From: an uncultured Lachnospiraceae bacterium
GTDB lineage: Bacteria; Bacillota; Clostridia; Lachnospirales; Lachnospiraceae
Reading direction: 5' to 3'
DNA length: 64,000 nt
NCBI GenBank assembly: GCA_947167135.1
Contig: CAMVGV010000010.1
Location: 2,237 to 66,236 of the forward strand
Position numbers and translations under genes: made by a program. Below the pieces are notes generated by a model. That model ran no database searches, was not told where the DNA came from, and was given only the letters and a program-made list of their open reading frames with translations. Numbering within the stretch: the stretch's first letter is position 1; every line of letters starts with the position of its first letter. This document shows, piece after piece, positions 16,158 through 61,395 of this stretch.

Positions 16158-16160
16158 TCT

Positions 16161-17279
16161 ATGAGAGCGATAGGTATAATTCTTGCCGGCGGCAATAATC
16201 ACCGGATGAAGGAACTGACAAAGAAACGCGCCATTGCGGCAATGCCCATAGCCGGAAGCTACAGGGGTATAGATTTCGCCCTGAGCAATATGACAAATTC
16301 CCATATACAGAAGGTCGGTGTATTTACCCAGTACAATGCCAAGTCCCTGACCCAGCACCTTTCCTCATCGAAATGGTGGGATTTCGGACGAAAGCAGGGT
16401 GGACTTTTCGTGTTCACTCCGTCCATGACCAGCGACCACTCCTTCTGGTCAAGGGGAACGGCGGATTCCATCTACCAGAACATCTCCTTCCTTAAGGACA
16501 GCCACGAGCCCTATGTGATAATCGCATCCGGCGACTGTGTCTACAAGATGAATTACAATAAGGTCCTTGAGTACCACATCGCAAAGAAGGCCGATATCAC
16601 CGTGGTATGCAAGGAGCTTCCGGCCAGTGAGAATGTGGAGAGATTCGGTGTTCTCACCATGAATGAGGACCAGAGGATCGTCGACTTTGAAGAGAAGCCC
16701 GTGGAGGCCAAGGGACGGACCATTTCCTGCGGAATCTACGTTATCCGCCGCCGCCAGCTTATCGAGCTTATCGAAAAGGCCGAGGAAGAGGACCGCCACG
16801 ACTTTGTTTCCGATATTCTGGTGCGTTACAGGAACCAGAAGCGTATATACGGCTACAAGATAGACAGCTACTGGAAGAACATCGCTACGGTAAATGATTA
16901 TTTCAGGACAAATATGGACTTCTTAAAGCCGGAGGTGCGGGACTACTTCTTTAACCAGTATCCGGATGTATATTCAAAGGTAGACGATCTGCCTCCCGCG
17001 AAGTATAATGTGGGAAGCCAGGTACATAACAGTCTCGCGTCCTCCGGCTGCATTATAAACGGCACAGTGCAGGATTCGGTACTCTTCAAGAAGGTTTTCG
17101 TCGGGAATAACTGCTTCATAAAGAATTCCATCATTCTTAATGATGTGTATATCGGAGACAATACCCATATTGAGAACTGTATCGTGGAGAGCCATGGCAC
17201 CATAAGGGCAAATTCCTACTACAAGGGTGAGAACGGGGTTCAGATAGTAATAGAACGAAGCGACCGTTTCTTCTTATAA
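16161..17279 (+). CDS. glgD: Glucose-1-phosphate adenylyltransferase regulatory subunit GlgD
   Basis: A paralogue of GlgC (ILAGGNNHRMKELTKKRAIAAMPIAGSYRGIDFALSNMTNS) immediately downstream, as in the Firmicutes glgCD arrangement. Confidence 0.88.
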   Translation: MRAIGIILAGGNNHRMKELTKKRAIAAMPIAGSYRGIDFALSNMTNSHIQKVGVFTQYNAKSLTQHLSSSKWWDFGRKQGGLFVFTPSMTSDHSFWSRGTADSIYQNISFLKDSHEPYVIIASGDCVYKMNYNKVLEYHIAKKADITVVCKELPASENVERFGVLTMNEDQRIVDFEEKPVEAKGRTISCGIYVIRRRQLIELIEKAEEEDRHDFVSDILVRYRNQKRIYGYKIDSYWKNIATVNDYFRTNMDFLKPEVRDYFFNQYPDVYSKVDDLPPAKYNVGSQVHNSLASSGCIINGTVQDSVLFKKVFVGNNCFIKNSIILNDVYIGDNTHIENCIVESHGTIRANSYYKGENGVQIVIERSDRFFL

Positions 17280-22837: not shown

Positions 22838-23422
22838 ATGGATAGATCCGGAAAAGGTATATTGTTTCTGACCCGGTCTGCTATGATCGCTGCGATCTAC
22901 GTGGTTTTAACGGTCTTTATTTCTGCTTTTAATCTGGCAAGCGGCGTGATCCAGATCCGTATATCCGAAGCGCTGACCATTCTTCCCGTATTTACAACTG
23001 CCGCCATTCCGGGGCTTTTCGCGGGCTGCCTTATCAGCAATCTGATAACGGGCTGTGCGCCCTTTGACGTGGTCTTCGGCAGCATAGCGACCCTTATCGG
23101 TGCCGTGGGAACCTATGCCCTGAGAAAGAAATCTCCTGCGATAGCGGCTCTTCCGCCTATCATTTCGAACACAGTGATAATACCCTTTGTGCTGAAATTC
23201 GTATACGATTTTCCGGGCAGCATCCCCTTCTTTATGCTGACGGTCGGAGCAGGCGAGGTTATCTCCTGCGGTATTCTCGGTGTTGCGCTTTATACCGCCC
23301 TTACCCCCGTGAAAAACCGGCTTTTCGGCAGCACCTCATTGGTGGACAGCACTTCGGATGAGAACATTTCCCGGGAGAGCAGCGGCGTCTCCGGCGACGG
23401 CAGCTCCTCAGACGACGTATGA
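22838..23422 (+). CDS. queT: QueT-family queuosine-precursor transporter (ECF S component)
   Basis: A polytopic protein of about 170 aa with IQIRISEALTILPVF, GCLISNL and DVVFGSIATLIGAVGTY, typical of QueT. It has an unusual acidic/Ser tail and starts 4 nt after prs. Confidence 0.7.
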   Translation: MDRSGKGILFLTRSAMIAAIYVVLTVFISAFNLASGVIQIRISEALTILPVFTTAAIPGLFAGCLISNLITGCAPFDVVFGSIATLIGAVGTYALRKKSPAIAALPPIISNTVIIPFVLKFVYDFPGSIPFFMLTVGAGEVISCGILGVALYTALTPVKNRLFGSTSLVDSTSDENISRESSGVSGDGSSSDDV

Positions 23423-25957
23423 CACAAATTCGTTTCCGTGGGAAGCGAACCATTCCGTACTGTCATTCATTCCCTTTTTGTAAATACTGCCTGTAGAGGG
23501 GTCGTAGATCACCGTATTCTTCGGGTCATATCCCACGATCATTACAATATTTCCGCCTTCTACCTCGGCAACGACCGGTCTTCCTATGCTCACATAATAG
23601 AGAACCGAACTTAAAGAGCAGCCTCCCAGTGTCAGGGCATCGGATCCGTCTATTTCCTCTTCTATAATGTCCACAAGACTGCCTTCCAGCCCTGCTATCT
23701 CTTCAGGCTCCGCGGTGACTCCCTCATGACTAAGTATTGCGGAAAGAACAGCCGTAAACTGCTCATCCTGACTTTCCGAAATGGGAGGATCAGTAATGTC
23801 ATTCAGATTTTTCTCCGCAGCTCTGTTTCCCTTCTGCCACAGGTATCTGCCTGTGGATTTGACCACAACACCTCCGCGCTCATCTGCCAGATTCACGGCT
23901 CTGACCTCGGACTCACAGATCCCGTCTATCCCTCCTCTGGAATAAACCATCAGCATTTTGCTGCTGTCTTCGTCATCCTTTATTTCCACGGTCCTGTCAC
24001 CCTCAAAGAGAACCTCCTTCGGGGATACCACATGAACTGAGGAGGTCCTGATATGACCCGCAAGGGATATCTCGGTTATGGTCTCCAGTTCCTCGGTAGC
24101 AACCGTAATGACCGCATTCCTGTCGCCGGTTCCCGGGTCATTATTCACGATCATATCGGGGTCAATACTCAGGAAATTGCCGCTTACCCCTTCCTCCATC
24201 GTGATCCGCGAAAGGCTTATCTCATCATTTTTCACCTCTACACCGGTAATATAGATCCCGTCCTTCGAATAGGTTTTTAGGAGCTCCCCGTCACTGCTTT
24301 CGATGTAGATCTTCTCCATTGAGTCCATGGAAACGCCTATCCGGCTCTCTATGGAATGCTCTCCCGTTGATGAGCCGTAGACCAGATCCTCTCCCAGGAA
24401 GCCAAGAGCCCTTATAGTCACACCGGGATCTCCCAGTATCTCCCGGATATTCCCGCTATTGAAATCGCAGACAAATATACCCGAATCATTCTTTGCCTGC
24501 CAGGCCGCTGTCCTTCCGCTCTTTGAAACCACAAAGGAATCGAAGTATATATTTCCGGCCATAATGGAATCCTTCTTCTCATCCAGACGGATGTCCAGAA
24601 GCCTGCCCCCCAGATACAGGTACAGCTTATTTCCGTCAGGCGAATAGGAGAATTTCTCTATTTCATATTTCAGGAACTGGTATGAACGCTTATAAGGGAT
24701 ATAAACCTCCTCCTCTATCTGGTTTAACGCACTGTTAAAGTAATAGGCCGACACCCCGGTTTCTCCCTCATGCCGCCCCCTGTTCATATATCCGTATATC
24801 AGGAAGGAAATATTACCCGCCTCGTCCACCTGCAGTATTTTTACTCCATGATCACTATTCCGGTTTCTTTCGTCATCGTCCCCCTTATCAAAAAACGAAA
24901 AAACCCGTATCACCTTTGAATCCGAATTTCTGTATGCATAGAGGGAGCCGTTCTGCACAAAGGCGACCACTCCTCCGTCCTCATTCTCTTCCATGACAAT
25001 ATCCGGATCCGAAATGCCCAGTACTATCTTGTCGCTTATAAAAACATCCTCGGAGTCGGGATCAAAAACCTCTTCCATGGTACGCTCGTAATTTAAGAGA
25101 TATATGCGCTTCTCCGTATAACGCACCCTGAAATACTCACTAACATCATAGAATACCGCATCATCCCCGTCCCCTCTTTTCAATAAGAAGCTGTTTTTAA
25201 GAGATGCGGTAGAATCATCCATTTCAAGTATATCCGTGCGGACCGTCTCCGGCTTTTCCGGAGCCAGATTCCCGTATGTTATCTGATCAAAGCTTGAATG
25301 GATGTTCACAAACTGATATGTGGAATTATCTCCGCTGGAATCACTCTCCAGATATGTGGTAAGGCTTCTCGCTGCAGTCTTGTCAAAGGTTCTGTCCGTG
25401 AAATCCCGGACAAAATCCAGTATCTCCTTTTCATGGAGCTCCGTATCGTGGATGATCCTCGTATAATAATAGATTTTCTGTCCCTGCTCATTTGTGAGCC
25501 TTACGGCAAGGATATACTCCTTTCCGTCGTTTATCAGATCCTTTATATTGAGTCTGGCGCTTATCCCGTCCTCATCCTCAATATAATCGAGTATCTCCGT
25601 ATCTTCGATAAGCCTCTCCGCATCAAGGGATCTGACTTCATATGCTACTTCCTTCAAACGGTTGCCGTATTTACTGATATATATTTCAAGGCTTCTTCCT
25701 TCATTTAAGGGAGTCAGGGTGTCGCGCATCATATTCGGCTCCACAGTACTCCTGATCCCGTACATCCGGTTGATCTCCCGGTCTCCGTCAACCACCGAGA
25801 CCACCGGAAGGCTGGCCTCCCCCATTTCCACGGTCATATCCGTCGTTCCGCGGTTCATTATTGAGCTTATGATAAACAGTGATATCAGAAAAGATGTAAT
25901 GAATATCGCTGCCTTGATTATTATCTCCTTCATATCATACTGAGTATAAATCAGCAA
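23408..25957 (-). CDS. Membrane-anchored extracytoplasmic protein of unknown function (possible beta-propeller plus C-terminal papain-like fold)
   Basis: An N-terminal TM (IIIKAAIFITSFLISLFIISSIM) and a long beta-rich region. The C-terminal part (GGCSLSSVLYYVSIGRPVV...IVMIVGYD) vaguely resembles C39-like/transglutaminase-like folds, but I cannot identify a catalytic His. The start (TTG 25957 or ATG 25933) is uncertain. Confidence 0.5.
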   Translation of the reverse strand: MLIYTQYDMKEIIIKAAIFITSFLISLFIISSIMNRGTTDMTVEMGEASLPVVSVVDGDREINRMYGIRSTVEPNMMRDTLTPLNEGRSLEIYISKYGNRLKEVAYEVRSLDAERLIEDTEILDYIEDEDGISARLNIKDLINDGKEYILAVRLTNEQGQKIYYYTRIIHDTELHEKEILDFVRDFTDRTFDKTAARSLTTYLESDSSGDNSTYQFVNIHSSFDQITYGNLAPEKPETVRTDILEMDDSTASLKNSFLLKRGDGDDAVFYDVSEYFRVRYTEKRIYLLNYERTMEEVFDPDSEDVFISDKIVLGISDPDIVMEENEDGGVVAFVQNGSLYAYRNSDSKVIRVFSFFDKGDDDERNRNSDHGVKILQVDEAGNISFLIYGYMNRGRHEGETGVSAYYFNSALNQIEEEVYIPYKRSYQFLKYEIEKFSYSPDGNKLYLYLGGRLLDIRLDEKKDSIMAGNIYFDSFVVSKSGRTAAWQAKNDSGIFVCDFNSGNIREILGDPGVTIRALGFLGEDLVYGSSTGEHSIESRIGVSMDSMEKIYIESSDGELLKTYSKDGIYITGVEVKNDEISLSRITMEEGVSGNFLSIDPDMIVNNDPGTGDRNAVITVATEELETITEISLAGHIRTSSVHVVSPKEVLFEGDRTVEIKDDEDSSKMLMVYSRGGIDGICESEVRAVNLADERGGVVVKSTGRYLWQKGNRAAEKNLNDITDPPISESQDEQFTAVLSAILSHEGVTAEPEEIAGLEGSLVDIIEEEIDGSDALTLGGCSLSSVLYYVSIGRPVVAEVEGGNIVMIVGYDPKNTVIYDPSTGSIYKKGMNDSTEWFASHGNEFVSYVV

Positions 25958-27514: not shown

Positions 27515-27516
27515 AA

Positions 27517-27735
27517 AGATCCTTCGGGCTACGCCCTCAGGATGACAAATGAAGGCTGACGCCATCAGGATGTCAAAAGAAGGCTGACGCCCTCAGGATG
27601 ACAACAGTGTCATTCTGAGCGAAGCGAAGAATCTTACATAGGATGTCCGCAGTGTCATTCTGAGCGGCGCTGCGTGCCAGTGGCACGCGTTTAGCGCGGA
27701 CCGAGTCGGAAGACGAGACACGAAGAATCTTACAT
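27517..27735. repeat. Composite REP/BIME-like array inside the atp operon (atpB-atpE spacer)
   Basis: GATCCTTCGGGCTACGCCCTCAGGATGACAA, two further ..CTGACGCC.TCAGGATG units and two GTCATTCTGAGCG units. It also holds the 53-nt GCGTGCCAGTGGCACGC module in inverse orientation to the copy at 3179-3235. Confidence 0.88.
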
Positions 27736-34167: not shown

Positions 34168-34328
34168 AAAGATCCTTCGCTGACGCTCAGGATGACAAGG
34201 GTTTCTCAAGATCCTTCACTGGCGCTCAGGATGACATTGCTCCTTGAAAGATCCTTCGCTGGCGCTCAGGATGACAAGGGTTTCTCAAGATCCTTCGCTG
34301 GCGCTCAGGATGACAAGGGTTCCTCTCA
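34168..34328. repeat. REP-like array, 4 direct copies of a unit of about 40 nt
   Basis: AAGATCCTTCGCTG(A/G)CGCTCAGGATGACAAGGGTTTCTC repeated four times between the GG-leader ORF and the 3' end of the hydrolase gene. Confidence 0.88.
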
Positions 34329-48957: not shown

Positions 48958-49030
48958 AATGCTCCTCTTTCAGATTTTTCTACAATCTGTTTTAGTTTAT
49001 CACTTTTTGGGGTAAACGGGAAGAGTAGTT

Positions 49031-49329
49031 ACTTTGTCATCCTGAGGAGCAGCCTAATTTGTCATCCTGAGGAGCGGAGCCTAATTTGTCATCCTGAGGA
49101 GCAGCCTAATTTATCATCCTGAGGAGCGCAGCCTACTTTGTCATCCTGAGGAGCAGCCTACTTTGTCATCCTGAGGAGCAACCTAATTTGTCATCCTGAG
49201 GAGCGCAGCGACGAAGGATCTTTCCATCCGGCAGTAGAAGATCCTTCGCTTCGCTCAGGATGACAAGAATGAAAGCTCAGGATGACAAGAATGAAACGCT
49301 CAGGATGACATTGGCGCTCAGGATGACAT
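49031..49329. repeat. Large REP array: 7 direct TTTGTCATCCTGAGGAGC..GCCTAA units, a central hairpin of about 80 nt, then 4 inverted CTCAGGATGACA units
   Basis: Read directly. The left-arm period is 29-32 nt and the right-arm period about 18-24 nt. The central element lies at 49188-49268. The array fills the whole HK-metG intergenic gap. Confidence 0.9.
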
Positions 49330-49339
49330 TGATGAACTG

Positions 49340-50662
49340 TTACCTTCTCACAGGGAGCATTACATTTGAAAAGAATTCGCATCCTTCATGCGAAAAGTAG
49401 GCGTTTCCGCCTTTAGATCTCGCAATGGATCCGATTGAGACAAGCCCCAGGCCGTTTCTCTTGTGGCCTGTGGAAAAATAGGTGCCGTTTACGATTTCGG
49501 GAGTACCGTTAAAGCTGTTTACTGCGGTGATAAAGAGATAGTAGTCATTCCTCACAGCCGCCGTAAGGCGGATGAAGCGCTTATATGCTTCTATTTCCCG
49601 GCAGGCATTTATGGCGTTTTCCAGAATATTACCGAAAATGCTGCAAAGCTCATTGTCGGAAATATCCATTTCCTTCGGCAGGGAAATATCCACGCTAAGC
49701 GGTATCTTCTCCATCTTTGCGATCTCCATATAGTAATTGAGAACCGCGTTTACAGCGGGATTCGAACAGACAGTTTTCACGGTGAGACCCGGCATATCAA
49801 CAATATAGCGGTCGATCAGGCTTTCGATCTCTTCGGTTTTTCCTTCAGCTGCAAGGCTCTTTATCGTCCTCACCGTATGCTTGAAGTCATGCCGCTCCTT
49901 TGCAACTGCCTCCAGATAACGCTGCTGTTTCTTAAACTGGGTTTCCTGCATCTGCAGGATATTATTCTCATTCTCTATATCCGCCGCTTCGATCATTGCC
50001 GTTACTATGAAATAAAACTGGATACAGAGAAGTATCATCAGCGTAAAAAACAAAACGAGTGAGAGCCAGAAAGCCAGGAAAACATTGTGTACATGCAGCG
50101 TTTCATAGTGCCTGGGGACAATGAAAAGATTGTAGGTAAGAAAGATAGCCATCACTCCGGCTGCCGTATACCATATCCTGTTCTGATGAAGCCTGTCCAC
50201 CATCATCCTTCCAAAGACCCTGAGGGGCTGCCACACGATGAGAAGGAAGACCACATTTATCAGTGCCTGAAATACTGCTGCTCTGAAACTGAAGTGATTG
50301 ATATCGGAGGTGGGATTGATAATGGCATCATAGCCGTTGGCAAAATTATTTAAGAACCCCGTAGCCGCGCCTGACAGGATAAACATAAACAAAGCCTTGC
50401 TGGTATGACAGCTCAGACAGTAACGGAATACAATGAAACAGATAAGAAAGGCGAGCGGTGTGATCCCGTTATAGGAAAGACCAAAGTATACTTCGACTGC
50501 GGAAAGCACGAGGATCATGATAAGAAAAACAACAGAGACGATCTTTATTGTTTTTCCCCTGGAAAACCTAAGCTGGTTCTTCATAGGGAGAAAACAGAGC
50601 ATTGCGGCCGTGATAAAGGGGATCCAGGTAATTAAATCGGCAAAAAAAGCGGAGGAACTCAT
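49340..50662 (-). CDS. HPK10-type (AgrC/ComD-like) sensor histidine kinase, GHKL ATPase
   Basis: About 6 N-terminal TMs, an H-box KERHDFKHTVRTI, and a C-terminal HATPase_c_5-like region (GNILENAINA...GLGLVSI). Its start overlaps the RR stop (ATGA). Confidence 0.85.
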   Translation of the reverse strand: MSSSAFFADLITWIPFITAAMLCFLPMKNQLRFSRGKTIKIVSVVFLIMILVLSAVEVYFGLSYNGITPLAFLICFIVFRYCLSCHTSKALFMFILSGAATGFLNNFANGYDAIINPTSDINHFSFRAAVFQALINVVFLLIVWQPLRVFGRMMVDRLHQNRIWYTAAGVMAIFLTYNLFIVPRHYETLHVHNVFLAFWLSLVLFFTLMILLCIQFYFIVTAMIEAADIENENNILQMQETQFKKQQRYLEAVAKERHDFKHTVRTIKSLAAEGKTEEIESLIDRYIVDMPGLTVKTVCSNPAVNAVLNYYMEIAKMEKIPLSVDISLPKEMDISDNELCSIFGNILENAINACREIEAYKRFIRLTAAVRNDYYLFITAVNSFNGTPEIVNGTYFSTGHKRNGLGLVSIGSIARSKGGNAYFSHEGCEFFSNVMLPVRR

Positions 50663-51405
50663 AAGGTTACTCCGCGATGCTCATTCCGGAGCTTATGAAA
50701 AACATAATTTCTCCAGGTCTCCTCTGCCTCCGGCTGATTCTTCTGGCTGATGGGGATACGTATGCTGTTTATGATGCAGCAGACCCCCTTCTCAAAGTTC
50801 ATGATATGATCCATATTTACGATCATGCCCCTGGAGACCATAAGGAAACGACCATCCTTGCCCAGAGTATCCCAAAGCTCATTAAAGCCTGTCCTGGTCT
50901 TGTACACAGCCCCGTCCTTATCCTCTATCTCCTGCCTGTTTCCGTCAGCAATAACTGTAACAATGCGGGAATAGGGGATCTGGACGTCACATCGGTTACT
51001 CATAAATTTCAGGAGCTTATTTGCCCCGGGATCCGTTGTGCGATTCAGGATATCATCAAAGGCCTTAAAGACCCTCTCCCTGACCACCGGCTTTTCCATA
51101 TATTCGTATGCATGGATGGAAAAGGCCTCCGGCATATACTCCAGGCTGCTGGTCAGAAAGAGTATAAACATATCACTGTCCCTCTTTCGGATCTCCTGAG
51201 CCGCCTCCACACCGTTCATGCCCTCCATGAAAATATCCAGAAAGACCGCCGTATAGCGGAAGGGACGAAAGGCCATCAGAAAATCCTCTGCCTTATCAAA
51301 TTCATCAATAGACAGCTCCAGATCGTTTATTACGGAATATTCCTTTAGGTAAAGGATCAGAGGCTCTACCTCTTCCCTGATATCATCAACAATCGCAACG
51401 TTCAT
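50659..51405 (-). CDS. LytTR-family response regulator
   Basis: A REC domain (MNVAIVDD...FLDIFMEGMNG) plus a C-terminal LytTR DNA-binding domain (...IPYSRIVTVIADGNRQEI...FLMVSRGMIVNMDHI). Confidence 0.88.
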   Translation of the reverse strand: MNVAIVDDIREEVEPLILYLKEYSVINDLELSIDEFDKAEDFLMAFRPFRYTAVFLDIFMEGMNGVEAAQEIRKRDSDMFILFLTSSLEYMPEAFSIHAYEYMEKPVVRERVFKAFDDILNRTTDPGANKLLKFMSNRCDVQIPYSRIVTVIADGNRQEIEDKDGAVYKTRTGFNELWDTLGKDGRFLMVSRGMIVNMDHIMNFEKGVCCIINSIRIPISQKNQPEAEETWRNYVFHKLRNEHRGVTL

Positions 51406-51459: not shown

Positions 51460-51686
51460 CAGCGCCAGCGCTTCTGTAATCCTGAGCGAAGCGAAGGATC
51501 TTTCCCAACCGATGAGAAAGATTCTTCGGGCTGCGCCCTCAGAATGACATACTCGTTTATGTCATCCTGAGCGAAGCGCTCCTGTCATCCTGAGCGCCAG
51601 CGAAGGATCTTCTACTGCCGGAGGAAAGATCCTTCGTCGCTTTGCTCCTCAGGATGACAAAGTAGGCTGCGCCCTCAGAATGACAC
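51460..51686. repeat. Composite REP array including a hairpin element of about 78 nt (51583-51660)
   Basis: Several GTCATCCTGAGCG / CCCTCAGAATGAC units. The 51583-51660 element is about 90% identical to the reverse complement of 49188-49268. Confidence 0.88.
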
Positions 51687-51689
51687 GAG

Positions 51690-53321
51690 CGTAGCTCTCA
51701 CCGGGCAGTATAGCTTCCGGTGAGATTGCTGCCCTTGAAAGTGAAGGTCTTCGAAGACCCGCTATAGCTCCACTCTTCCTTCTTTGCCTTGTAATCCTTT
51801 CCGTTTATCATCACTTTGACAGACTTCGGGCTCCCGTTCTTTTTCCATTTCACTGTCAAAGAATCCGTATTTCTGACATAGTAGGGATTTGACTTATATG
51901 ACAGACCCTTTGACCCCTTTGTGGCTTTCTTTATTTCTCTTTCCGTTTTTTTGTCGGCTCCGGAGAGTCCCGTTATCTGGAAGCAGTGGTTCTTTTTATT
52001 GATCTTTACCTTTGTTACCTTATAGGTGGCATTATTGACCGATACCGTGATCCCCTTTTCTCCAAAGACCTCTATTCCTGCCTTTGATTTTCCCCAGAAC
52101 GGAAGCTCGTGGCAGTAGGATATCCTTTATGATCCCTTTGTCTCCGTACGGTAGTCCATAGGCTTATTGTCGGAAACAGTGACTTTCTTTTCTGCCGCAT
52201 CATTACCGCTGCCGGTATTGTCGTCTGTTTTTCCTTCTTCATTCTCACTGCTGTTATCTTTTTTCTGATCCACATAGGTGAGATACCATGATGAAAGACG
52301 GTCTGTTTCTACAGGAAGCGTAGTGTCCGTACCGGATGAGGCGATCTCCACCCTTCCGTCATCATAAATATGGACAACGAAAAACGTTCTTATGACCTCC
52401 TCATCATCGTTCCTCATGGATACGGGAACCTCTATGGTAAATGCTATTTTCCCCGTTCCTTTTTCAGGTTCGATCTCCTGTTTACTGCCATTCCCGACCT
52501 GCTTATAAAGCTTGATATCAAGCATCATTCCGCTTCCCGATACATCAGTTCCGGTGCTTTTCTTTACCTCAGCCTCTGCTTTTGCTTTTGCCTCTTCATT
52601 GCCGCCGGTTGTATCACCGCTTGCCTTCTCTTTTATCTCCAGCGTTACCGTCAGGGTTTCTCCGGCTTCCACTGCCTGTTTTTCTGTTTCATTTAAGAGA
52701 CCGGCTGCGAGCTCTGCAGGGATCGTGACATCACTTACGGCAAAACCATCATTCTCACCGGTATCGTAGGTCACAACCTTGCTCTCTATCTTTCCGGTAC
52801 CGTTAGGTATGGTGTTTTCCGGGAGAGTTTCCTCGTTCCTTTTGTAAATATAGAAAGTATTTTTACCATATTCCACAGAGTAATTACCCTGTGTTTCTTC
52901 TCCGGATGCGCTTATTTCATACTTTCCGGCATCTTCTCCGCTTTCACGGGAGAGCGTATATTTTATAAGCCCATCGCTTTCACCCTCTACGATACCCGTA
53001 ACAGCTGCGGTCAGCTCCGGATCCTCTTCACCGGTAAGCTTTTCCTTTTCATCGGGCCTTACTGTTACCGCAGCTCTCTTTATCGTTACGCTTACACCGG
53101 CCTCTTCACTGTCAGAATGATCACTGTCCCCGAAGACCTTGTAATACACGGTATAGGTGCCTGCATCCTTCTTTACGGGGACATTCTCCGTATATCCGCT
53201 TCCGGATGTGAGGCTGTACATTAATGTTCCGCCTGCAGCGGTGCCTTTCTCTGTGAGGGTCTGATCACCTCCGTTGTAGGTAAGGTCTTTTGCGGAAGGA
53301 GCCTTTGTGATGACTGATCCG
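51690..53321. repeat. Adhesin 3' cassette, copy A (about 1.6 kb shared with copy C, 1.15 kb with copy B)
   Basis: The ORF track shows identical protein strings, identical antisense ORFs and identical 67-aa out-of-frame ORFs at offsets +4962 and +8076. Nucleotide comparison by eye shows identity except near the tract ends. Confidence 0.92.
51698..52126 (-). other. Start-less 142-codon ORF in frame with, and immediately after, the TAA stop of the LRR adhesin gene (copy A)
   Basis: Manual translation after TAA (52129-52127): RISYCHELPFWGKSKAGIEVFGEKGITVSVNNATYKVTKVKINKKNHCFQITGLSGADKK...KTFTFKGSNLTGSYTAR, then TGA (51700-51698). There is no ATG/GTG/TTG before codon 92, so it is absent from the ORF track. 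Confidence 0.6.
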
Positions 53322-56300
53322 GCCTTATTCCCGGCGGGTTCTGCAGATGCGGTAACCGTCACCTTGCAGGTCGCGGTTTTATTTCCGTCTGCCGTGGTGA
53401 CCGTGATGTTTGCCGTTCCGGGCGCAACAGCTGTTACCACACCCTTTTCATTTACCGTGGCGACCTGTGTATTACTGCTCTTCCAGGTCACTGCTTTATT
53501 TGTGGCATCTGAAGGTTCCACTGCAGCAGTAAGGGTCAGGGTCTTTCCCTTTACTATGGACGCACTGCTCTTATTAAGCTTTACCCCGGTTACAGAACGG
53601 GCAGCGATCTTAAATTTTTTCGTAAGATTCAGGACGTATCGCCCTGTTCCCTTTACTGTAACGGTGGCTTCGCCTGCATTGGTATTATTCTTGTACTGCA
53701 CGCTGTAGCAGCCGGGGTAGAGGATACCGTCTGCATTTTTTACGCTTATCTTCGGAGTGATCGCCTTTCCTGTGTATATCTGATCCGGGATATTATCGAT
53801 CACGTAGCCCTTGCCCGACAGATCCTCGCGGTAGTTGCAGATTAAATTGGCAGAGAGCATCTCCCCCTTGTCTTCATCCATATTATAATCGAGGAGAGTC
53901 AACGAGCCGAACTGGTTATCATACCCGCCAATCAAATACTGCTTGGCTTCCTCTGTTTCAGGATCTTTCCATTCTTCTCCCATTATAGGGAACATTGTTT
54001 TCAATATCTCAAGCTTACCTTCATCGCTTATGTTCCTGAAGCTGTCTTCAAGAGCCTGCCATTCCTCTTTACTGCCCGGGAAATAAACATCTTTAACCTC
54101 TGCCGCCATAAACAGGAAAGGCATCAGATGGTCTTTATCAAGGTTTTTGGGCAGGATCACCTTACCGGCACTGCCTTGGATAAACAGAAACAATCCAAGT
54201 TCAGTCACGCTGTCCGGTATATTGACACTCTCCATTTTATTTCCGGCAAATGCACAATCACCTATAGATTTCACTCCTTCAGGAATAAGAATGTTTTTAA
54301 GCTTCATGCATCCTGCAAAGGCATAAGGGGCTATCTTTTCCGTCCCGGAAGGAACAGAGTATGTACTTTCCTCCCTTCCTGCAGGGTACTGAATGAGAGT
54401 CTTTCCATCCTTTGAAAACAGTACGCCTCCAACAGCCTTGACGCAATTATTGCCCTCTGCAACATTTATAGAGACCAGTTCAGGACACACACAAAACGGA
54501 CTGCCCTCAGTTGTTCCTATCTCTTTTACACTTGCAGGGAGGGTGATCTCTTTTATGGGGCATTGCTGGAAAGCACAGGCGGCTATGGTTTCAAGACCTT
54601 CGTTAAGGCTTACGGTCTCTAATCCTTCATTAAAGGCAAACGCATATCTGCCTATGGATTTTACACTCTTAGGAATATTGACATTGGTCAATGCTGTTCC
54701 TGAAAATGCATACTCGTCTATGGATTCTAAGCCTTCTTTCAGAGTCAGGCTGCTTAATTTCTCACATGATTCAAACGCTTTCGAACCTATGGTTTTAAGA
54801 CCTTCCGGAAGAGTCACCTCTGTCACTCCCTTAAGCAGCAAGAAAGCGCTGTTTCCGATACCTGTGATACCATCTTTTATTATTATCCGGCTTATGTCAC
54901 TGAAAGAATAAATCTCACCATTATAACTCCAGGTTTTTTTCCATGGCTGCCCTGAGTTATCTGAGTTATCCGAATAATCCGGCATATTGCCCCGTCCGGA
55001 TATGGTCAGGATGAATTTCCCCTCCTCTTCATCCGGGCTTATCTCCCAGGTGATATTGTTGTTTTCACCTATGGTTCCGCTTTTTATCACATTTGAAGGA
55101 GTAATACTGAGTTCTTTGCTTTTAGCTATCTGTTTTTGCGATCCCTCCTCGTTGTAGTAACCCAGGACTCTGAAAACATATTCCTTTCCGGGGTCAAGTT
55201 TCTTTATCTCACTGTCGAGTTTTCCGTTAATGATCTGACTGTCCGGTACATTTATCCAATCTCCATTTTCATTTTTCATCTCTATCTTATAACTAAAGGC
55301 ATCTTTGGCAGGATCAATGTCGTAATATTTTTCCCAGCTTATTTTCGCCTTTCCGGTTCCGGATTCTGCTTCTATTGAAGCGTTGACTACGCCCTTCTTA
55401 TAGTTATAGATAACTGTAAACGGATTAGAATTGTTTACCGTTTCCAAACCGCCGTAATTCTCAAACTGCTCCTTTGTACCGCTGTACAGTATATACTTAT
55501 CGTCAACAGAGCATTTTTCAAAAACAGAACCCCCTGTTTCCTTGATATTGCTTCCAAAAGCCACGCGCGTCAGGTCTGTACATCCTGAAAAAAGCTTCTG
55601 CTCCAGACTGCTGACCCTCGACGGAATCTCGATACTTACAAGCCCTGATGTATTAAATGCGGATACTCCTATTTTCTCCAACGTATCCGGAAGTTCTATG
55701 CCTTTTAAGGCTTCGCATTTATAGAACGCATATTTTCCGATTGTTTTTAAATTGCCGGGAAGCTTTACCGAGGATAAAGAAGTGCACGTGCTAAAGGTAG
55801 AATCAGGCAGTATTTCCAATTTGCAGTTCTCATTAAAGCTGACCGTCTTAAGCTCTTTGCATTCGTTAAATACGCTTTCTCCCATTGAGGTAAGTCCCGA
55901 AGGAAGAGTGACCGATTTCAGGGCCGTTTTATACAAAGCCGTTTTTCCGATATGTGTAAGATTTTTCGGAAGCAAGATCTCAGATAAAGCTTCGCACTCA
56001 GAAAACGCATCGTCACCTATTGTTTCAACTTTTTCGGGAATCGTAATGCTTGTTAGAGCTTTACAACCATTAAAAGCAAAATCCCCGATCTCAGACAGAG
56101 ATTCCGGTAATTCCACTTCTGTGACCTCTGTGAAATCTTTAAGGGCATTATTCCCGACCCTTGTTATCCCCTTGTCTATCACAACCTTTGTCACTCTTTG
56201 AAGGGGGTAATAATTAGTGTCCTGTCCGAGCATGAATCCCTTTTGCCAGGGACTATTTGTACCCGCTACATAATCCGGTATTGCACCCTCACCTTCGAAG

Positions 56301-56533
56301 GTCAGGGTGTTCGTACCTGGATCGATCTTCCAACTGATGACCTTCCCGTTTCCGCCATCCACCTCGCCGGAGGCTATGGTCTCAATCTCTCCATTCCCGG
56401 AAGCTACCGGCTCACCGGCCATTACCTCTGCCCCACCGACCGGAACTCCTCCCGTAACTGGCATAAAAAGACTGCCGGCGAGTACCGCCGCTGCAGTAAT
56501 AACAGACATCATACGTCTTCCGCTCTTATTCAT
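52127..56533 (-). CDS. Secreted surface protein: two BspA-type leucine-rich-repeat blocks, FN3-like, Big_2, MBG (YGX-type) domains and a shared C-terminal module
   Basis: A signal peptide. Repeated ..IPE.V..IG..AF..C..L..I.LP motifs (LRR_5/BspA). A Big_2 segment (VTGVKLNKSSASIVKGKTLTLTA...ATCKVTV). An MBG-like domain (KLTGEEDPELTA...GNYSVEYGKNTFYI). No LPXTG. Confidence 0.85.
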   Translation of the reverse strand: MNKSGRRMMSVITAAAVLAGSLFMPVTGGVPVGGAEVMAGEPVASGNGEIETIASGEVDGGNGKVISWKIDPGTNTLTFEGEGAIPDYVAGTNSPWQKGFMLGQDTNYYPLQRVTKVVIDKGITRVGNNALKDFTEVTEVELPESLSEIGDFAFNGCKALTSITIPEKVETIGDDAFSECEALSEILLPKNLTHIGKTALYKTALKSVTLPSGLTSMGESVFNECKELKTVSFNENCKLEILPDSTFSTCTSLSSVKLPGNLKTIGKYAFYKCEALKGIELPDTLEKIGVSAFNTSGLVSIEIPSRVSSLEQKLFSGCTDLTRVAFGSNIKETGGSVFEKCSVDDKYILYSGTKEQFENYGGLETVNNSNPFTVIYNYKKGVVNASIEAESGTGKAKISWEKYYDIDPAKDAFSYKIEMKNENGDWINVPDSQIINGKLDSEIKKLDPGKEYVFRVLGYYNEEGSQKQIAKSKELSITPSNVIKSGTIGENNNITWEISPDEEEGKFILTISGRGNMPDYSDNSDNSGQPWKKTWSYNGEIYSFSDISRIIIKDGITGIGNSAFLLLKGVTEVTLPEGLKTIGSKAFESCEKLSSLTLKEGLESIDEYAFSGTALTNVNIPKSVKSIGRYAFAFNEGLETVSLNEGLETIAACAFQQCPIKEITLPASVKEIGTTEGSPFCVCPELVSINVAEGNNCVKAVGGVLFSKDGKTLIQYPAGREESTYSVPSGTEKIAPYAFAGCMKLKNILIPEGVKSIGDCAFAGNKMESVNIPDSVTELGLFLFIQGSAGKVILPKNLDKDHLMPFLFMAAEVKDVYFPGSKEEWQALEDSFRNISDEGKLEILKTMFPIMGEEWKDPETEEAKQYLIGGYDNQFGSLTLLDYNMDEDKGEMLSANLICNYREDLSGKGYVIDNIPDQIYTGKAITPKISVKNADGILYPGCYSVQYKNNTNAGEATVTVKGTGRYVLNLTKKFKIAARSVTGVKLNKSSASIVKGKTLTLTAAVEPSDATNKAVTWKSSNTQVATVNEKGVVTAVAPGTANITVTTADGNKTATCKVTVTASAEPAGNKAGSVITKAPSAKDLTYNGGDQTLTEKGTAAGGTLMYSLTSGSGYTENVPVKKDAGTYTVYYKVFGDSDHSDSEEAGVSVTIKRAAVTVRPDEKEKLTGEEDPELTAAVTGIVEGESDGLIKYTLSRESGEDAGKYEISASGEETQGNYSVEYGKNTFYIYKRNEETLPENTIPNGTGKIESKVVTYDTGENDGFAVSDVTIPAELAAGLLNETEKQAVEAGETLTVTLEIKEKASGDTTGGNEEAKAKAEAEVKKSTGTDVSGSGMMLDIKLYKQVGNGSKQEIEPEKGTGKIAFTIEVPVSMRNDDEEVIRTFFVVHIYDDGRVEIASSGTDTTLPVETDRLSSWYLTYVDQKKDNSSENEEGKTDDNTGSGNDAAEKKVTVSDNKPMDYRTETKGS

Positions 56534-56578
56534 TCCTGATCCTCCTGATCAAAGGTCTTCTCCTAAATTTCCTTTATA

Positions 56579-56644
56579 AAGATAAAAAATTTTTAGTCTG
56601 ATTTCAATAGAACCGTGACGAAAAAATCTGAAACGTGACGAAAA
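56579..56644 (-). promoter_or_regulatory. Candidate activator-dependent promoter: two direct repeats TTTTCGTCACG (20-nt period) abutting TTGAAA-17-TATCTT
   Basis: On the plus strand CGTGACGAAAA occurs at 56614-56624 and 56634-56644. On the minus strand the -35 TTGAAA lies at 56607-56602 and the -10 TATCTT at 56584-56579, about 45 nt upstream of the ATG at 56533. Confidence 0.4.
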
Positions 56645-56651
56645 GTTGATG

Positions 56652-57808
56652 AGTAGATCTCACCGGGAAGCATAGCTTCCGGTGAGATTGCTGCCCTTGA
56701 AGGTGAAGGTCTTCGAAGACCCGCTATAGCTCCACTCTTACTTCTTTGCCTTGTAATCCTTTCCGTTTATCATCACTTTGACAGACTTCGGGCTCCCGTT
56801 CTTTTTCCATTTCACTGTCAAAGAATCCGTATTTCTGACATAGTAGGGATTTGACTTATATGACAGACCCTTTGACCCCTTTGTGGCTTTCTTTATTTCT
56901 CTTTCCGTTTTTTTGTCGGCTCCGGAGAGTCCCGTTATCTGGAAGCAGTGGTTCTTTTTATTGATCTTTACCTTTGTTACCTTATAGGTGGCATTATTGA
57001 CCGATACCGTGATCCCCTTTTCTCCAAAGACCTCTATTCCTGCCTTTGATTTTCCCCAGAACGGAAGCTCGTGGCAGTAGGATATCCTTTATGATCCCTT
57101 TGTCTCCGTACGGTAGTCCATAGGCTTATTGTCGGAAACAGTGACTTTCTTTTCTGCCGCATCATTACCGCTGCCGGTATTGTCGTCTGTTTTTCCTTCT
57201 TCATTCTCACTGCTGTTATCTTTTTTCTGATCCACATAGGTGAGATACCATGATGAAAGACGGTCTGTTTCTACAGGAAGCGTAGTGTCCGTACCGGATG
57301 AGGCGATCTCCACCCTTCCGTCATCATAAATATGGACAACGAAAAACGTTCTTATGACCTCCTCATCATCGTTCCTCATGGATACGGGAACCTCTATGGT
57401 AAATGCTATTTTCCCCGTTCCTTTTTCAGGTTCGATCTCCTGTTTACTGCCATTCCCGACCTGCTTATAAAGCTTGATATCAAGCATCATTCCGCTTCCC
57501 GATACATCAGTTCCGGTGCTTTTCTTTACCTCAGCCTCTGCTTTTGCTTTTGCCTCTTCATTGCCGCCGGTTGTATCACCGCTTGCCTTCTCTTTTATCT
57601 CCAGCGTTACCGTCAGGGTTTCTCCGGCTTCCACTGCCTGTTTTTCTGTTTCATTTAAGAGACCGGCTGCGAGCTCTGCAGGGATCGTGACATCACTTAC
57701 GGCAAAACCATCATTCTCACCGGTATCGTAGGTCACAACCTTGCTCTCTATCTTTCCGGTACCGTTAGGTATGGTGTTTTCCGAGAGAGTTTCCTCGTTC
57801 CTTTTGTA
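56652..57808. repeat. Adhesin 3' cassette, copy B
   Basis: Identical to 51690-52846 except for a few SNPs. One of them creates TAA in the post-stop ORF (56740-56738). Confidence 0.92.
56660..57088 (-). other. Post-stop in-frame ORF, copy B (interrupted by an extra TAA at codon 117)
   Basis: Same sequence as copy A. GAA (E117) in copy A is TAA here. Confidence 0.6.
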
Positions 57809-58275
57809 AATTAGGAAGCGGCGACATTTACATCCTTCTCCCGTTCCTCTTCAACTGCTGCCTCTGCCTTCTCCTCGTCTGTGCGTCCGGCTTTATTTAC
57901 CGAGAGATGTATATCCCCCTCAGGAAAAGCACCGCTTTCAGCTCCTACGGTGATCTTTACGCCGTCAATTGTTTTTGATTCTTCGAAAGCATCAGAGGAT
58001 ACATTATCAGCGGGATCATCCGGGGCAGCTTCATTATCTGCTGCTTCGTCACCGGACACAGTTCTGCCGTCACCATTTCCGGATACACTGACAGAAGCGT
58101 CCGGCTTTTCAGGCTCTGAAATTTCCGGTCCCGCAGTATCAGACTCACCGGACTCCTGTTCTATGGTTTCCTCTATTTCAGATCCGAAAGCCACCGCCGG
58201 AACCTGCGTAGTCAGCATTATTGCCGTAAGTCCCACTGCTGCAAGTCTTTTCAATACATTCCCGTACCTTCTCAT
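57089..58275 (-). pseudogene. Chimeric, frame-disrupted adhesin fragment: 154-aa signal-peptide/acidic N-terminus joined out of frame to the shared C-terminal module
   Basis: ORF 57811-58275 (MRRYGNVLKRLAAVGLTAIMLTTQVPAVAFG...) stops at TAA 57813-57811. The shared module (..IYKRNEETLSENTIPNGTGKIESKVVTYDTGEN..) continues in the -1 frame from the same point. I see no slippery heptamer. Confidence 0.7.
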
Positions 58276-58367
58276 TTTGATGCTCCTTTAATCAATTATA
58301 AAAACTGTCTTCTATCCCTTTATATGTTTTATTACTATTATCCTGACAGTCAATAAAAGTGTCGTGA

Positions 58368-59660
58368 TCAGTCTTTAAGACATGCCAGCGGTATTATTTT
58401 AACCCCATCCTCCCTGGTATATGCCATATTTCCACCGGTGATGATAATTAACAGATCCGGTTCCCTGAGAGGTAATTGCTTTTCTTTTTTATTATACTCT
58501 CTGACAAGCTCTTTTATTTTCAGCAGGTGACCGGCCCCTTCTTCTATTTCTGCACTTCCAAGCTTAAACTCAATAAGAGCATATCTTCCGTCTCCTATAT
58601 GAAGCACCGCGTCCGCTTCAAGACCATATCTGTCATGATAGTAAGATACTTTTCCGTTTATGGCCTGTGAGTAAACCTTTAAGTCTCTTATGCACATGCA
58701 TTCAAAGATAAAGCCAAATGTCTTCAGGTCCATTTCCAGATAATCCGGCGTTAATCCCAACGAAGCCACTGCAATGGACGGATCTACAAACTCCCGTTTG
58801 TACCCTGAACGAATGGTGGTCGCAGACCGAATAGACGGACACCACGCTTCAACGTCTTCTATTACAAATAATCTTTCCAGTGCCGTCAGGTAGGAATCAA
58901 AAGTACCCTGTGACAAAGACTCTTCATTTGCGTTAACATCATTGAAAATATTGCTTTTTTTTGACAAAGTGGACAGATTTCTTGAATACGACTTTAGTAT
59001 TGCACTCGCCAACGAGGGATTTCTGCCGGTTCCGTCAACTGTGGAAATATCTGACTCGCACACATTTTTCAAATAGTCTTTAGCCACAAACAGCTTGGCC
59101 TGATCAGATTTTTTTCGTAAGGTTGATGGCCATCCTCCTCTGCATGCGGCAAAAATAAGCTCCTCCACCTTCATTTCCGATGTTATTCCATCAATATCCA
59201 GATCAGAATCATCAAAGAGTTCTTTTAATGATATCTTCCCATTAGATTCCAATGACTCAAACAGACTCATCGGGTACATCTTTAATCGGGATATTCTGCC
59301 GGTTCCGGTATGATGTATCTTTTTTTCATCAACTGAGGTGGACCCGGTCAATATAAATAATCCATCTTCCTGGCGGTTATCGACGGCAGTTCTTACTGCA
59401 TCCCATAGTACAGGTGCTTCCTGCCATTCATCTATAAGTCGCGGATTATCCCCTTTCAACAAAAGAGAAGGTTTTGTATTTGCTGTTGCCAGATATGATT
59501 CTCTCATGTCCGGATCCTGCATTTTTAACACACTTTTAGCCTTCTGTTCAGCAGAAGTTGTTTTCCCGCACCATTTTGGACCTATTATCAGAGTAGCTCC
59601 TGATGCCTCCAACCGTAATCCTAATTCTGAATCTATAATTCTATGTAAGTATTCACCCAT
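58368..59660 (-). CDS. AAA+ ATPase with DUF4143 (AAA_14/DUF4143 family)
   Basis: YLHRIIDSEL...LIIGPKWCGKTT (Walker A) and LFILTGS, with a C-terminal region typical of DUF4143 proteins. I prefer the start MGEYLHR at 59660, which has a GAGGTG SD, over the track start at 59720. Confidence 0.8.
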   Translation of the reverse strand: MGEYLHRIIDSELGLRLEASGATLIIGPKWCGKTTSAEQKAKSVLKMQDPDMRESYLATANTKPSLLLKGDNPRLIDEWQEAPVLWDAVRTAVDNRQEDGLFILTGSTSVDEKKIHHTGTGRISRLKMYPMSLFESLESNGKISLKELFDDSDLDIDGITSEMKVEELIFAACRGGWPSTLRKKSDQAKLFVAKDYLKNVCESDISTVDGTGRNPSLASAILKSYSRNLSTLSKKSNIFNDVNANEESLSQGTFDSYLTALERLFVIEDVEAWCPSIRSATTIRSGYKREFVDPSIAVASLGLTPDYLEMDLKTFGFIFECMCIRDLKVYSQAINGKVSYYHDRYGLEADAVLHIGDGRYALIEFKLGSAEIEEGAGHLLKIKELVREYNKKEKQLPLREPDLLIIITGGNMAYTREDGVKIIPLACLKD

Positions 59661-59718
59661 TTTGTCACCACCTCTTACACACAAAGAATATTGTAAATCA
59701 GGGATTTTGTCAATTGTC

Positions 59719-59785
59719 ATTGTGTGTTTTTGAGGTGATGTGTTGTGTGTTTTTGAGGCTATTCGTTGTGTGTTTTTGAGGAAGC
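59719..59785. repeat. Three direct copies of TGTGTGTTTTTGAGG (period 22-23 nt)
   Basis: Read directly. The repeats sit between the ATPase start and the end of cassette copy C, and they encode the divergent tail of the copy-C post-stop ORF. Confidence 0.85.
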
Positions 59786-60202
59786 ATAGCTTCCGGCGAG
59801 ATTGCTGCCCTTGAAGGTGAAGGTCTTTGAAGTCCCATTATAGCTCCACTCTTCCTTCTTTGCCTTGTAATCCTTTCCGTTTATCATCACTTTGACAGAC
59901 TTCGGGCTCCCGTTCTTTTTCCATTTCACTGTCAAAGAATCCGTATTTCTGACATAGTAGGGATTTGACTTATATGACAGACCCTTTGACCCCTTTGTGG
60001 CTTTCTTTATTTCTCTTTCCGTTTTTTTGTCGGCTCCGGAGAGTCCCGTTATCTGGAAGCAGTGGTTCTTTTTATTGATCTTTACCTTTGTTACCTTATA
60101 GGTGGCATTATTGACCGATACCGTGATCCCCTTTTCTCCAAAGACCTCTATTCCTGCCTTTGATTTTCCCCAGAACGGAAGCTCGTGGCAGTAGGATATC
60201 CT
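59759..60202 (-). other. Post-stop in-frame ORF, copy C (147 codons, open)
   Basis: Same as copy A up to ..FKGSNLAGSYASSKTHNE, then TAG (59761-59759). Confidence 0.6.
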
Positions 60203-61395
60203 TTATGATCCCTTTGTCTCCGTACGGTAGTCCATAGGCTTATTGTCGGAAACAGTGACTTTCTTTTCTGCCGCATCATTACCGCTGCCGGTATTGTCGT
60301 CTGTTTTTCCTTCTTCATTCTCACTGCTGTTATCTTTTTTCTGATCCACATAGGTGAGATACCATGATGAAAGACGGTCTGTTTCTACAGGAAGCGTAGT
60401 GTCCGTACCGGATGAGGCGATCTCCACCCTTCCGTCATCATAAATATGGACAACGAAAAACGTTCTTATGACCTCCTCATCATCGTTCCTCATGGATACG
60501 GGAACCTCTATGGTAAATGCTATTTTCCCCGTTCCTTTTTCAGGTTCGATCTCCTGTTTACTGCCATTCCCGACCTGCTTATAAAGCTTGATATCAAGCA
60601 TCATTCCGCTTCCCGATACATCAGTTCCGGTGCTTTTCTTTACCTCAGCCTCTGCTTTTGCTTTTGCCTCTTCATTGCCGCCGGTTGTATCACCGCTTGC
60701 CTTCTCTTTTATCTCCAGCGTTACCGTCAGGGTTTCTCCGGCTTCCACTGCCTGTTTTTCTGTTTCATTTAAGAGACCGGCTGCGAGCTCTGCAGGGATC
60801 GTGACATCACTTACGGCAAAACCATCATTCTCACCGGTATCGTAGGTCACAACCTTGCTCTCTATCTTTCCGGTACCGTTAGGTATGGTGTTTTCCGGGA
60901 GAGTTTCCTCGTTCCTTTTGTAAATATAGAAAGTATTTTTACCATATTCCACAGAGTAATTACCCTGTGTTTCTTCTCCGGATGCGCTTATTTCATACTT
61001 TCCGGCATCTTCTCCGCTTTCACGGGAGAGCGTATATTTTATAAGCCCATCGCTTTCACCCTCTACGATACCCGTAACAGCTGCGGTCAGCTCCGGATCC
61101 TCTTCACCGGTAAGCTTTTCCTTTTCATCGGGCCTTACTGTTACCGCAGCTCTCTTTATCGTTACGCTTACACCGGCCTCTTCACTGTCAGAATGATCAC
61201 TGTCCCCGAAGACCTTGTAATACACGGTATAGGTGCCTGCATCCTTCTTTACGGGGACATTCTCCGTATATCCGCTTCCGGATGTGAGGCTGTACATTAA
61301 TGTTCCGCCTGCAGCGGTGCCTTTCTCTGTAAGTGTCTGATTACCTCCGTTATAGGTAAGGTCTTTTGCGGAAGGAGCCTTTGTGATGACTGATT
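59766..61395. repeat. Adhesin 3' cassette, copy C
   Basis: Matches 51690-53321. SNPs are concentrated in the outer 100 nt or so at both ends. Confidence 0.92.

Follow-up and report, generated by a model that had tools for sequence, protein, structure and literature searches.

How do adhesin-like genes with entirely different 5' parts come to carry one and the same 3' end? The question is raised by a 64,000-nucleotide (nt) stretch of DNA from an uncultured Lachnospiraceae bacterium (contig CAMVGV010000010.1; the whole stretch is referred to below as the window), in which a 3' cassette is present three times, as copies A, B and C. The island that holds the copies appears to be a tandem, same-strand array of genes for secreted adhesin-like proteins, on the chromosome of a Lachnospiraceae of the rumen that is related to the cultured isolate AD3010. 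In the initial annotation the layout was compared to surface variation systems in which silent donors recombine into expression loci. The analysis presented here suggests that the identity of the shared 3' ends is most probably the result of concerted evolution by gene conversion, and not of programmed switching. It also reveals that the 'stop codon' of all three genes is a premature nonsense codon, which is the new point of this work, while gene conversion itself is well known.

Self-BLAST of the window and a repeat search located all three copies in direct orientation on the minus strand (Table 1), at the previously noted offsets of +4962 and +8076. Copies A (51704-53318) and C (59780-61394) align over 1615 nt at 99.26%, with 12 mismatches and no gaps, copies A (51691-52857) and B (56653-57818) over 1167 nt at 99.31%, and copies B and C over 1154 nt at 99.22%, so the initial claim of three near-identical tracts is supported by pairwise identities of 99.2-99.3%. 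No further copies of the cassette were found in the window. In a three-way alignment the copies are 100% identical over 1043 nt (51779-52821 in A coordinates), and A and C are free of any difference over 1492 nt (51763-53254). Eight A/C single nucleotide polymorphisms (SNPs) fall in 51706-51762, the last ~60 nt of the 3' end, and four within the 5' margin of the tract, at 53255-53276; for this pair, therefore, SNPs do occur only near the tract ends, as had been stated. Copy B has one private SNP (57784) and one nonsense SNP (56740), and then its own junction.

The cassette encodes only a protein tail, and its boundaries lie within coding sequence. Copy A includes the last ~397 codons of gene A, encoding a module of ~85 amino acids (aa) without assignment, MBG_2 and a 241-aa module without a family match, followed by the cut-off remnant of a C-terminal domain (CTD); copy B contains only the 241-aa module and the CTD remnant. 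Pfam analysis agrees with the earlier statement that the 5' parts are unrelated, assigning LRR_5, fn3, Big_2 and MBG_2 to gene A, YDG and MBG_2 to gene C, and no family to the short open reading frame (ORF) upstream of copy B (the stub). The MBG-type module of the cassette also has an internal paralogue within gene C, at 74-80% identity in self-BLAST. The 5' boundary shared by A and C is a linker between domains, but the breakpoints are not all exactly at domain boundaries, as initially thought, because the junction at which copy B starts is blunt and frame-breaking and precedes the end of the MBG_2 match by three codons. At the opposite end, the tail of copy A (...GSYTAR and stop) is followed by repetitive extragenic palindrome (REP)-like elements, and that of copy B (...GSYASR and stop), which is also the tail of C-locus genes of AD3010 and contigs L005 and L007, is followed by the promoter of gene A. 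The tail of copy C reads ...GSYAS/SKTHNE and stop, its last codons being supplied by the first copy of a 23-nt tandem repeat.

Contigs from independent samples cover a large part of this arrangement. Contig L003, from a different European Nucleotide Archive (ENA) sample, corresponds to window positions 59893-53200 at 99.91%, and contig L004 (Logan) to positions 59868-57754 at 100%. The junctions between the C tail and a neighbouring ATPase gene, between the stub and copy B, between the B tail and the gene A promoter, and between the gene A body and the A cassette are reproduced in these contigs, from which it may be judged that the three copies are physically real. At the protein level the cassette was detected at 94-95% identity in AD3010, in RUG14895, a metagenome-assembled genome (MAG) of an uncultured Lachnospiraceae, and in RGIG3735, a Lachnospiraceae MAG from goat rumen; for strain MC2017 the match was confined to the CTD, at 60%.

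The initial description of the repeat was right, but the repeat extends ~430 nt beyond the annotated stops of these minus-strand genes, and the stops themselves are an in-frame nonsense codon. Translation through the end of gene A showed that its TAA is in frame with 142 further open codons, ending at TGA 51698-51700, and the same is true of copies B and C. The repeat ends where the ancestral ORF truly ended, and for this reason the cassette seems to include ~430 nt of 'non-coding' DNA. In relatives the codon is TTA (Leu) or TAC (Tyr): the closest homologue (P0001, 94% identical) and the gene C protein of AD3010 (P0015) read through as ...TETKGS-L-RISYCHELPFWGK..., as do 11 more distant homologues, and across homologues the residue is L, F, Y, M or V, followed by the conserved CTD. 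Copy B of L003 has TAC (Tyr). The TAA allele was found in no dataset other than the window, and when Joint Genome Institute (JGI) metagenomes were scanned for this site, whatever its allele, one contig was obtained, which carries TTA and is identical to L002.

The TAA is regarded as a genuine premature stop, and not as recoding, because normal genes of the window end in TAA, TAG and TGA, no tRNA gene is present in the window, and copy B has a second in-frame TAA, at which the 332-aa ORF of L003 also ends. TAA terminates 12 of the 32 long ORFs, including that of MetRS, and stop-codon reassignment or readthrough was rejected on the same grounds.

The segment of ~1170 nt common to the three window copies was compared with its counterparts in contigs L002, L005, L006 (= AD3010) and L007. 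Copies A, B and C differ among themselves at 10-22 positions, all of them in the tails, at the B junction or at the two B-private SNPs, whereas 30-52 positions of the same segment differ between the window copies and the four contigs. With a between-strain divergence of 2.6-4.4%, the computed chance of zero differences in 1043 nt is 1e-12 to 1e-20. Between strains, 17-29 synonymous and 18-38 non-synonymous codon differences were counted among 537 codons, and within the window genome the ~430 nt after the nonsense codon are also identical, tail SNPs excepted. A role of purifying selection in producing the identity was rejected, since synonymous and post-stop sites are identical within the genome, while synonymous codons vary between strains. 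Strains also differ in a mosaic way at the 5' end of the A/C tract: GGTTCAATCA is found in window copy C and in AD3010, its A-type counterpart GGCCGGATCA in L005 and L002, and at the next three marker sites of this boundary L005 is A-type and L002 is C-type. The gene conversion suspected in the initial annotation, which would be recent, is thus supported by copies that cluster by genome, identical neutral sites, SNPs at the tract ends and a mosaic 5' boundary.

A trace of successive events, in a process that appears to be recent and ongoing, may be preserved in L003, which differs from the window at six positions over 6694 nt. Four of the six lie inside copy B (1166 nt; binomial p ~0.01), and at one of these sites copy B of L003 keeps the base A of all other strains, while window copies A, B and C share a derived G. 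As L003 copy B keeps the base of the other strains at this site and has TAC at the nonsense site, where other strains have TTA, at least two rounds of homogenisation would be needed.

These observations may be combined in the following way. In an intact unit of the array (gene A, and gene C in the orthologues), a promoter and a signal peptide precede a variable body, which is followed by a common 3' end built of the MBG-type module, the 241-aa module and the CTD. The sequence comparisons show that a 3' segment of 1.1-1.6 kb has been homogenised non-reciprocally among three tandem paralogues, one of which is dead. Homology between the 3' ends and their direct orientation would allow ordinary homologous recombination, presumably dependent on RecA, to copy one repeatedly onto another by gene conversion, wiping out differences in the middle of the tract and leaving the own SNPs of each copy at its ends. 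Conversion of this kind probably carried one TAA into all three copies of the window strain, leaving the proteins of genes A and C without the CTD. Copy B would be a by-product with a tail that is still homologous and hence still homogenised. Over longer times, repeats, insertion sequence (IS) elements and inserted genes may drive the gain, loss and replacement of whole genes, so that each strain comes to have a different layout.

The origin of copy B can be traced in the stub, which aligns at 37% identity with P0015, the gene C protein of AD3010, over residues 68-256 of the latter. The stub ends in ...NVAAS, and P0015 continues as ...NVNVAAS/YTYDIKVL at exactly that point. In the window, NVAAS is followed by cassette bases starting three codons before the end of MBG_2, with no microhomology, a one-base shift and an immediate TAA (57811-57818). 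Judging by this comparison, copy B is a gene-C-like paralogue that has lost ~2000 internal codons through an illegitimate, frame-breaking deletion. The stub/B junction is identical in the window, L003 and L004 and is thus fixed in this lineage. Copy B has its own promoter-proximal start and signal peptide; it is a pseudogene because of the two nonsense codons in its tail, and its continued identity with A and C would be due solely to its remaining a conversion substrate. A programmed frameshift joining the stub to the cassette was considered and rejected, since no slippery sequence was recognised at GCT TCC TAA TTT and the comparison with P0015 points to a deletion scar. A search for a full-length relative of the stub gene gave only the protein of the window itself and a 101-aa fusion fragment.

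In silent-cassette systems, such as pilE/pilS of Neisseria, vlsE/vls of Borrelia, msp2 of Anaplasma and mgpB/MgPar of Mycoplasma genitalium, variable segments from many promoterless donors are moved into one expression site. A truncated, out-of-frame copy beside two apparently expressed genes might be understood similarly, as part of a programmed variation in which silent or truncated donors recombine into expression loci and change the adhesin displayed within a clonal population. Non-reciprocal recombination between repeated segments of surface genes, with a truncated, non-expressible copy nearby, is common to both situations; long direct repeats could mediate the exchange, the locus structure differs between strains, and the ~105-nt promoter/leader shared by gene A and the gene C orthologues places homology on both sides of the variable bodies. 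In the window, however, the shared tract is the constant part of the genes and therefore has no diversity to donate, while the variable bodies are single-copy and lack silent counterparts. The 5' ends are separate for each gene: a promoter and a signal peptide belong to gene A itself, and likewise to the gene C orthologues (the window stops before the gene C start), and copy B, with its own start and signal peptide, blunt junction, two nonsense codons and identical structure in three datasets, is the sole non-functional copy, with nothing novel to donate. The window encodes no recombinase, as already observed in the initial annotation, and no integrase or transposase, and contains neither inverted repeats of at least 100 nt nor a specialised cis element for recombination. 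The differences between strains leave relics, as in one-way decay and not in reversible switching. Silent donors feeding expression loci, as first proposed, are therefore highly improbable, copy B being a deleted pseudogene. A related possibility is that gene conversion itself acts as a reversible switch of the whole family, with TAA copied into every member of the array, which would detach the whole set from the cell surface simultaneously, perhaps under pressure from phages or the host, and with copy B, which has TAC in a 99.9% identical strain, as a reservoir of the sense allele; this was considered very unlikely.

The near-perfect identity and sharp boundaries might also result from a single recent event of duplication or domain shuffling, in which one cassette was pasted onto three genes and has remained identical because it is young, with no ongoing conversion. 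The position of the A/C boundary in an inter-domain linker would agree with this, as would the MBG-type module, which looks native to gene C, given its internal paralogue, and foreign in the LRR gene A. Yet the same three-part arrangement, or its relics, is present in strains diverged by 3-6% (in AD3010 as gene C, a cassette relic and gene A, whose contig breaks at the cassette, and also in L007), which means that the cassettes are old, although identical within the window genome. The tail alleles and flanks of copies A and B have also stayed distinct, strains differ in their mosaic tract endpoints, and copy B of L003 differs from that of the window within an otherwise 99.9% identical background, making a one-off duplication unlikely. 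An artefact of assembly or polishing, with fewer than three copies in reality, or with copies truly more different and homogenised by consensus polishing, would agree with the TAA allele being found in no other dataset; besides, short-read assemblies of related strains break at the repeat, L001 starting and L003, L004 and L006 ending inside or beside it. Against this stand the reproduction of all four junctions in L003 and L004, the distinct and well-resolved tails and flanks of A and B, which an assembler would not invent, and the agreement of L003 copy B with window B at all but 4 of 1166 positions, so that an artefact is hardly credible as the source of the pattern. Several points nevertheless weigh against concerted evolution by gene conversion as presented here. 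The conversion events are deduced from sequence comparison; the window is a single assembly of unknown technology, in which polishing with multi-mapping reads could exaggerate the identity and copy TAA into all three genes; no independent contig over the TAA position of copy A or C was found in this lineage, the copy B allele being the only one known for that of L003; and the wall-anchor role considered below for the CTD is an inference, its confident model having no match in the Protein Data Bank (PDB).

A comparison of the locus across strains, which had been proposed in the initial annotation, demonstrated that its structure is not invariant, every related strain recovered being different. 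In AD3010 (L006), gene C with an intact CTD is followed by REP-like elements and small ORFs, a 50-nt cassette relic, the gene A promoter and gene A; the ATPase gene and the stub are absent, and the scaffold stops ~200 nt before the A cassette would begin. In L001 the order is cassette tail, ATPase gene, relics of the stub signal peptide and of gene A Big_2, a gene for an unrelated 1180-aa coiled-coil surface protein, and the same response regulator and kinase as in the window, and in L005 gene C and REP-like elements are followed by an orthologue of the coiled-coil gene of L001 (L005 11560-12318). An IS of the DDE_Tnp_1 type, located 36 nt upstream of the cassette, truncates gene C in L002 (= JGI contig L010; L002 3128-5033). 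In L009 the promoter and first ~25 codons of gene C are fused to the ribosome-binding site and N-terminus of the stub, after which comes another, different DDE_Tnp_1 IS (859-3108). The idea of the cassette as a mobile element was rejected, since it has no inverted repeats and no transposase, and the IS elements of L002 and L009 are adjacent to it but unrelated. The strains have thus diverged through deletions, through the insertion of IS elements and through the replacement of genes, all of which left scars; such changes look like birth-and-death evolution of a tandem array, which is helped by the shared tails and the shared ~105-nt promoter. The small ORFs of AD3010 (L006 11140-12090) lie on the minus strand, and the 50-nt relic, directly before the gene A promoter, encodes ...DDGRVEIASSGTD. 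The 1180-aa protein of L001 (2077-5619) is acidic, contains tandemly repeated sequence and ends in a transmembrane anchor, and the stub and Big_2 relics lie upstream of its gene at 1797-2077.

The closest documented analogue of this locus appears to be found in Helicobacter pylori, where babA/babB and homA/homB undergo concerted evolution at their 3' ends. According to the summary given in PMC3960876, the 3' segments of babA/babB, homA/homB and sabA/sabB/hopQ evolve in concert by intragenomic RecA-dependent gene conversion (Pride & Blaser 2002). As with babA/babB, the window has paralogous adhesin genes with different parts (receptor-binding in H. pylori, whole bodies here), similarity of the 3' segments is greater inside one strain than from strain to strain (here 0 differences in 1043 nt versus 30-52), and the identity includes neutral sites and has sharp boundaries, differences at the ends and mosaic, variable endpoints. 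Chimeric or mosaic alleles and a variation of copy number and locus occupancy among strains are further common features. In contrast to the dispersed loci of H. pylori, the genes of the window form a tandem array in a Gram-positive-type rumen Firmicute; their bodies have wholly unrelated domain architectures instead of being allelic mid-regions, the shared part consists of modules ending in an undescribed CTD and not of an outer-membrane beta-barrel, and every copy carries the same homogenised nonsense codon.

The CTD removed by the TAA is a conserved domain of ~150 aa, which was aligned with 12 homologues (alignment A1) and has the motif VSDNKPM...G.F.I.Y.H.IPFFGK.K...NKKK..IQITGL.GADK...KKATKG..GL.FK.NPYYV...KDYKAKK.E.SYD...F.G.NL.GSY. 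It occurs at the extreme C-terminus of signal-peptide proteins with very different bodies (LRR_5, Flg_new, beta-helix-like and MBG). In a hidden Markov model (HMM) search of 1.84 billion protein representatives (clusters at 50% identity), ~100 of the best 150 matches had the CTD at this position. The totals of this search (3137, 449 and 101 matches) are inflated by beta-helix and LRR proteins, because the alignment kept non-CTD columns, and only the ~100 top C-terminal matches were used. No model of Pfam or NCBIfam matches the CTD. An AlphaFold2 model was obtained with high confidence (pLDDT 91.7, pTM 0.80), and Foldseek of this model against the PDB gave no significant match (best E-value 0.19, TM <0.3). 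The TAA lies in the first strand of the CTD, and genes A and C of this strain accordingly encode proteins without it.

A common C-terminal module for wall attachment, placed on diverse bodies, is well known from Gram-positive surface-protein families, such as CWB2 of Clostridioides difficile, SLH, choline-binding and LPXTG proteins. The CTD resembles these in being always at the extreme C-terminus of signal-peptide proteins with diverse bodies, and differs in having no Pfam or NCBIfam match and no structural match in the PDB. Known wall-anchoring domains (LPXTG, SLH, CWB2, LysM, SH3b/GW, ChW and choline-binding) were considered as candidates for its identity and rejected, as none gave a profile or fold match. 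That the CTD may be a module for cell-wall attachment or sorting is suggested by its invariable place at the C-terminus, by a basic sequence rich in lysine and by the lack of any other anchor. If it does anchor the proteins, the products of genes A and C would be released, and not retained, in the window strain. The CTD, conserved, confidently folding and unannotated, is thus a candidate new module of this type.

The locus provides a well-bounded case of concerted evolution in the surface-protein repertoire of abundant, little-studied rumen Lachnospiraceae. Recombination between shared 3' ends would both homogenise and reshuffle adhesin genes, and it can spread a loss of function across a gene family in one lineage, which annotators would miss because the TAA is taken for a natural stop. 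The locus also illustrates why adhesin islands of this sort break short-read assemblies. The mechanism is ordinary, and the main interest lies in the homogenised nonsense codon and in the undescribed CTD that it removes.

Table 1. Positions of the cassette copies, nonsense codons, genes and other elements of the adhesin-like island (window coordinates)
Feature	Position	Strand	Description	Basis
Copy A	51691-53318	minus	3' end of gene A	self-BLAST, three-way alignment, Pfam, translation
Copy B	56653-57818	minus	out of frame with upstream stub; pseudogene	self-BLAST, alignment; junction identical in L003 and L004
Copy C	59780-61394	minus	3' end of gene C	self-BLAST, three-way alignment
TAA nonsense codon, copy A	52127-52129	minus	annotated stop of gene A	
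Equivalent TAA codons	B 57089-57091; C 60203-60205	minus		translation
Second nonsense codon, copy B only	56738-56740	minus	GAA to TAA, ...KAKK-stop-EW...; also in L003	
CTD remnant after TAA	A 51698-52126; B 56660-57088; C 59759-60202	minus		translation, alignment, AlphaFold2 model
CTD including part before TAA	51698-52183, 56660-57145, 59759-60259			homologues P0003-P0014
Gene A	52127-56533	minus	1468-aa secreted BspA-type protein: signal peptide, LRR_5, fn3, Big_2, MBG_2	ORF, Pfam
Gene A promoter and leader	56543-56647	minus	directly adjoins end of copy B	
Stub	57811-58275	minus	154 codons: signal peptide and acidic region; no family match	ORF, Pfam
AAA_14/DUF4143 ATPase gene	58368-59720	minus	between copies C and B, outside repeat	Pfam; PADLOC PDC-S01 E=2.4e-53
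Tandem repeat, 23 nt, 2.7 copies	59720-59781	minus	marks insertion junction of ATPase block	
Gene C	60203 to beyond 64000	minus	YDG and MBG_2; runs off window, open to edge	ORF, Pfam

An exact look-up of the gene A protein (P0018) returned no record. The gene C orthologue of AD3010 (P0015) is a protein of 2447 aa with beta-helix-like, YDG and MBG_2 parts. The promoter and leader of gene A match, at 93-97% identity, the sequence that precedes the gene C orthologues in L005, L006, L007 and L009, and contain a -35/-10-like pair (56607-56579) and a perfect direct repeat, TTCGTCACG-N11-TTCGTCACG (56614-56642), which is unique in the window. The only two differences between the window and L003 outside the cassette (56627 and 56602) are within this promoter. 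The spacing of the direct repeat resembles that of binding sites of LytTR response regulators, making it a putative site of this kind. Genes of an AgrC/AgrA-like kinase (HATPase_c_5) and a LytTR response regulator (50659-51405) are located directly downstream of the island, together spanning 49340-51405.

The AAA_14/DUF4143 ATPase gene is absent from this site in AD3010, in which the tail of gene C is ...GSYASR and stop. In the window the 23-nt repeat replaces the last codon of the original gene C ORF, so that the ATPase block looks like an insertion. The ATPase matches PDC-S01 of PADLOC, a candidate defence family. Its protein is 100% identical in L001, L003 and L004, although the response-regulator/kinase flank of L001 is only ~94.5% identical at the DNA level.

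The remaining part of the window is ordinary chromosome, encoding ATP synthase, MurC, DnaD/DnaI-like replication proteins, PRPP synthetase, MecA and MetRS. An Rfam scan of 48.9-64 kb gave nothing. Families of REP-like palindromic intergenic repeats were found at 49030-49331, 51470-51690, 27515-27725 and 3174-3321, with units such as GTCATTCTGAGGGCGCAGCC and CGCTCAGGATGACA, some of them in tandem with a 25-nt period; they flank the genes of the two-component system and are also present elsewhere in the window and in related loci. Four long ORFs have no Pfam match: 6317-10309 (1330 aa), 10494-12158 (554 aa), 14916-16358 (480 aa) and 23408-25957 (849 aa). Tandem-repeat DNA is located at 6075-6273, beside the first of these ORFs, and at 34168-34325.

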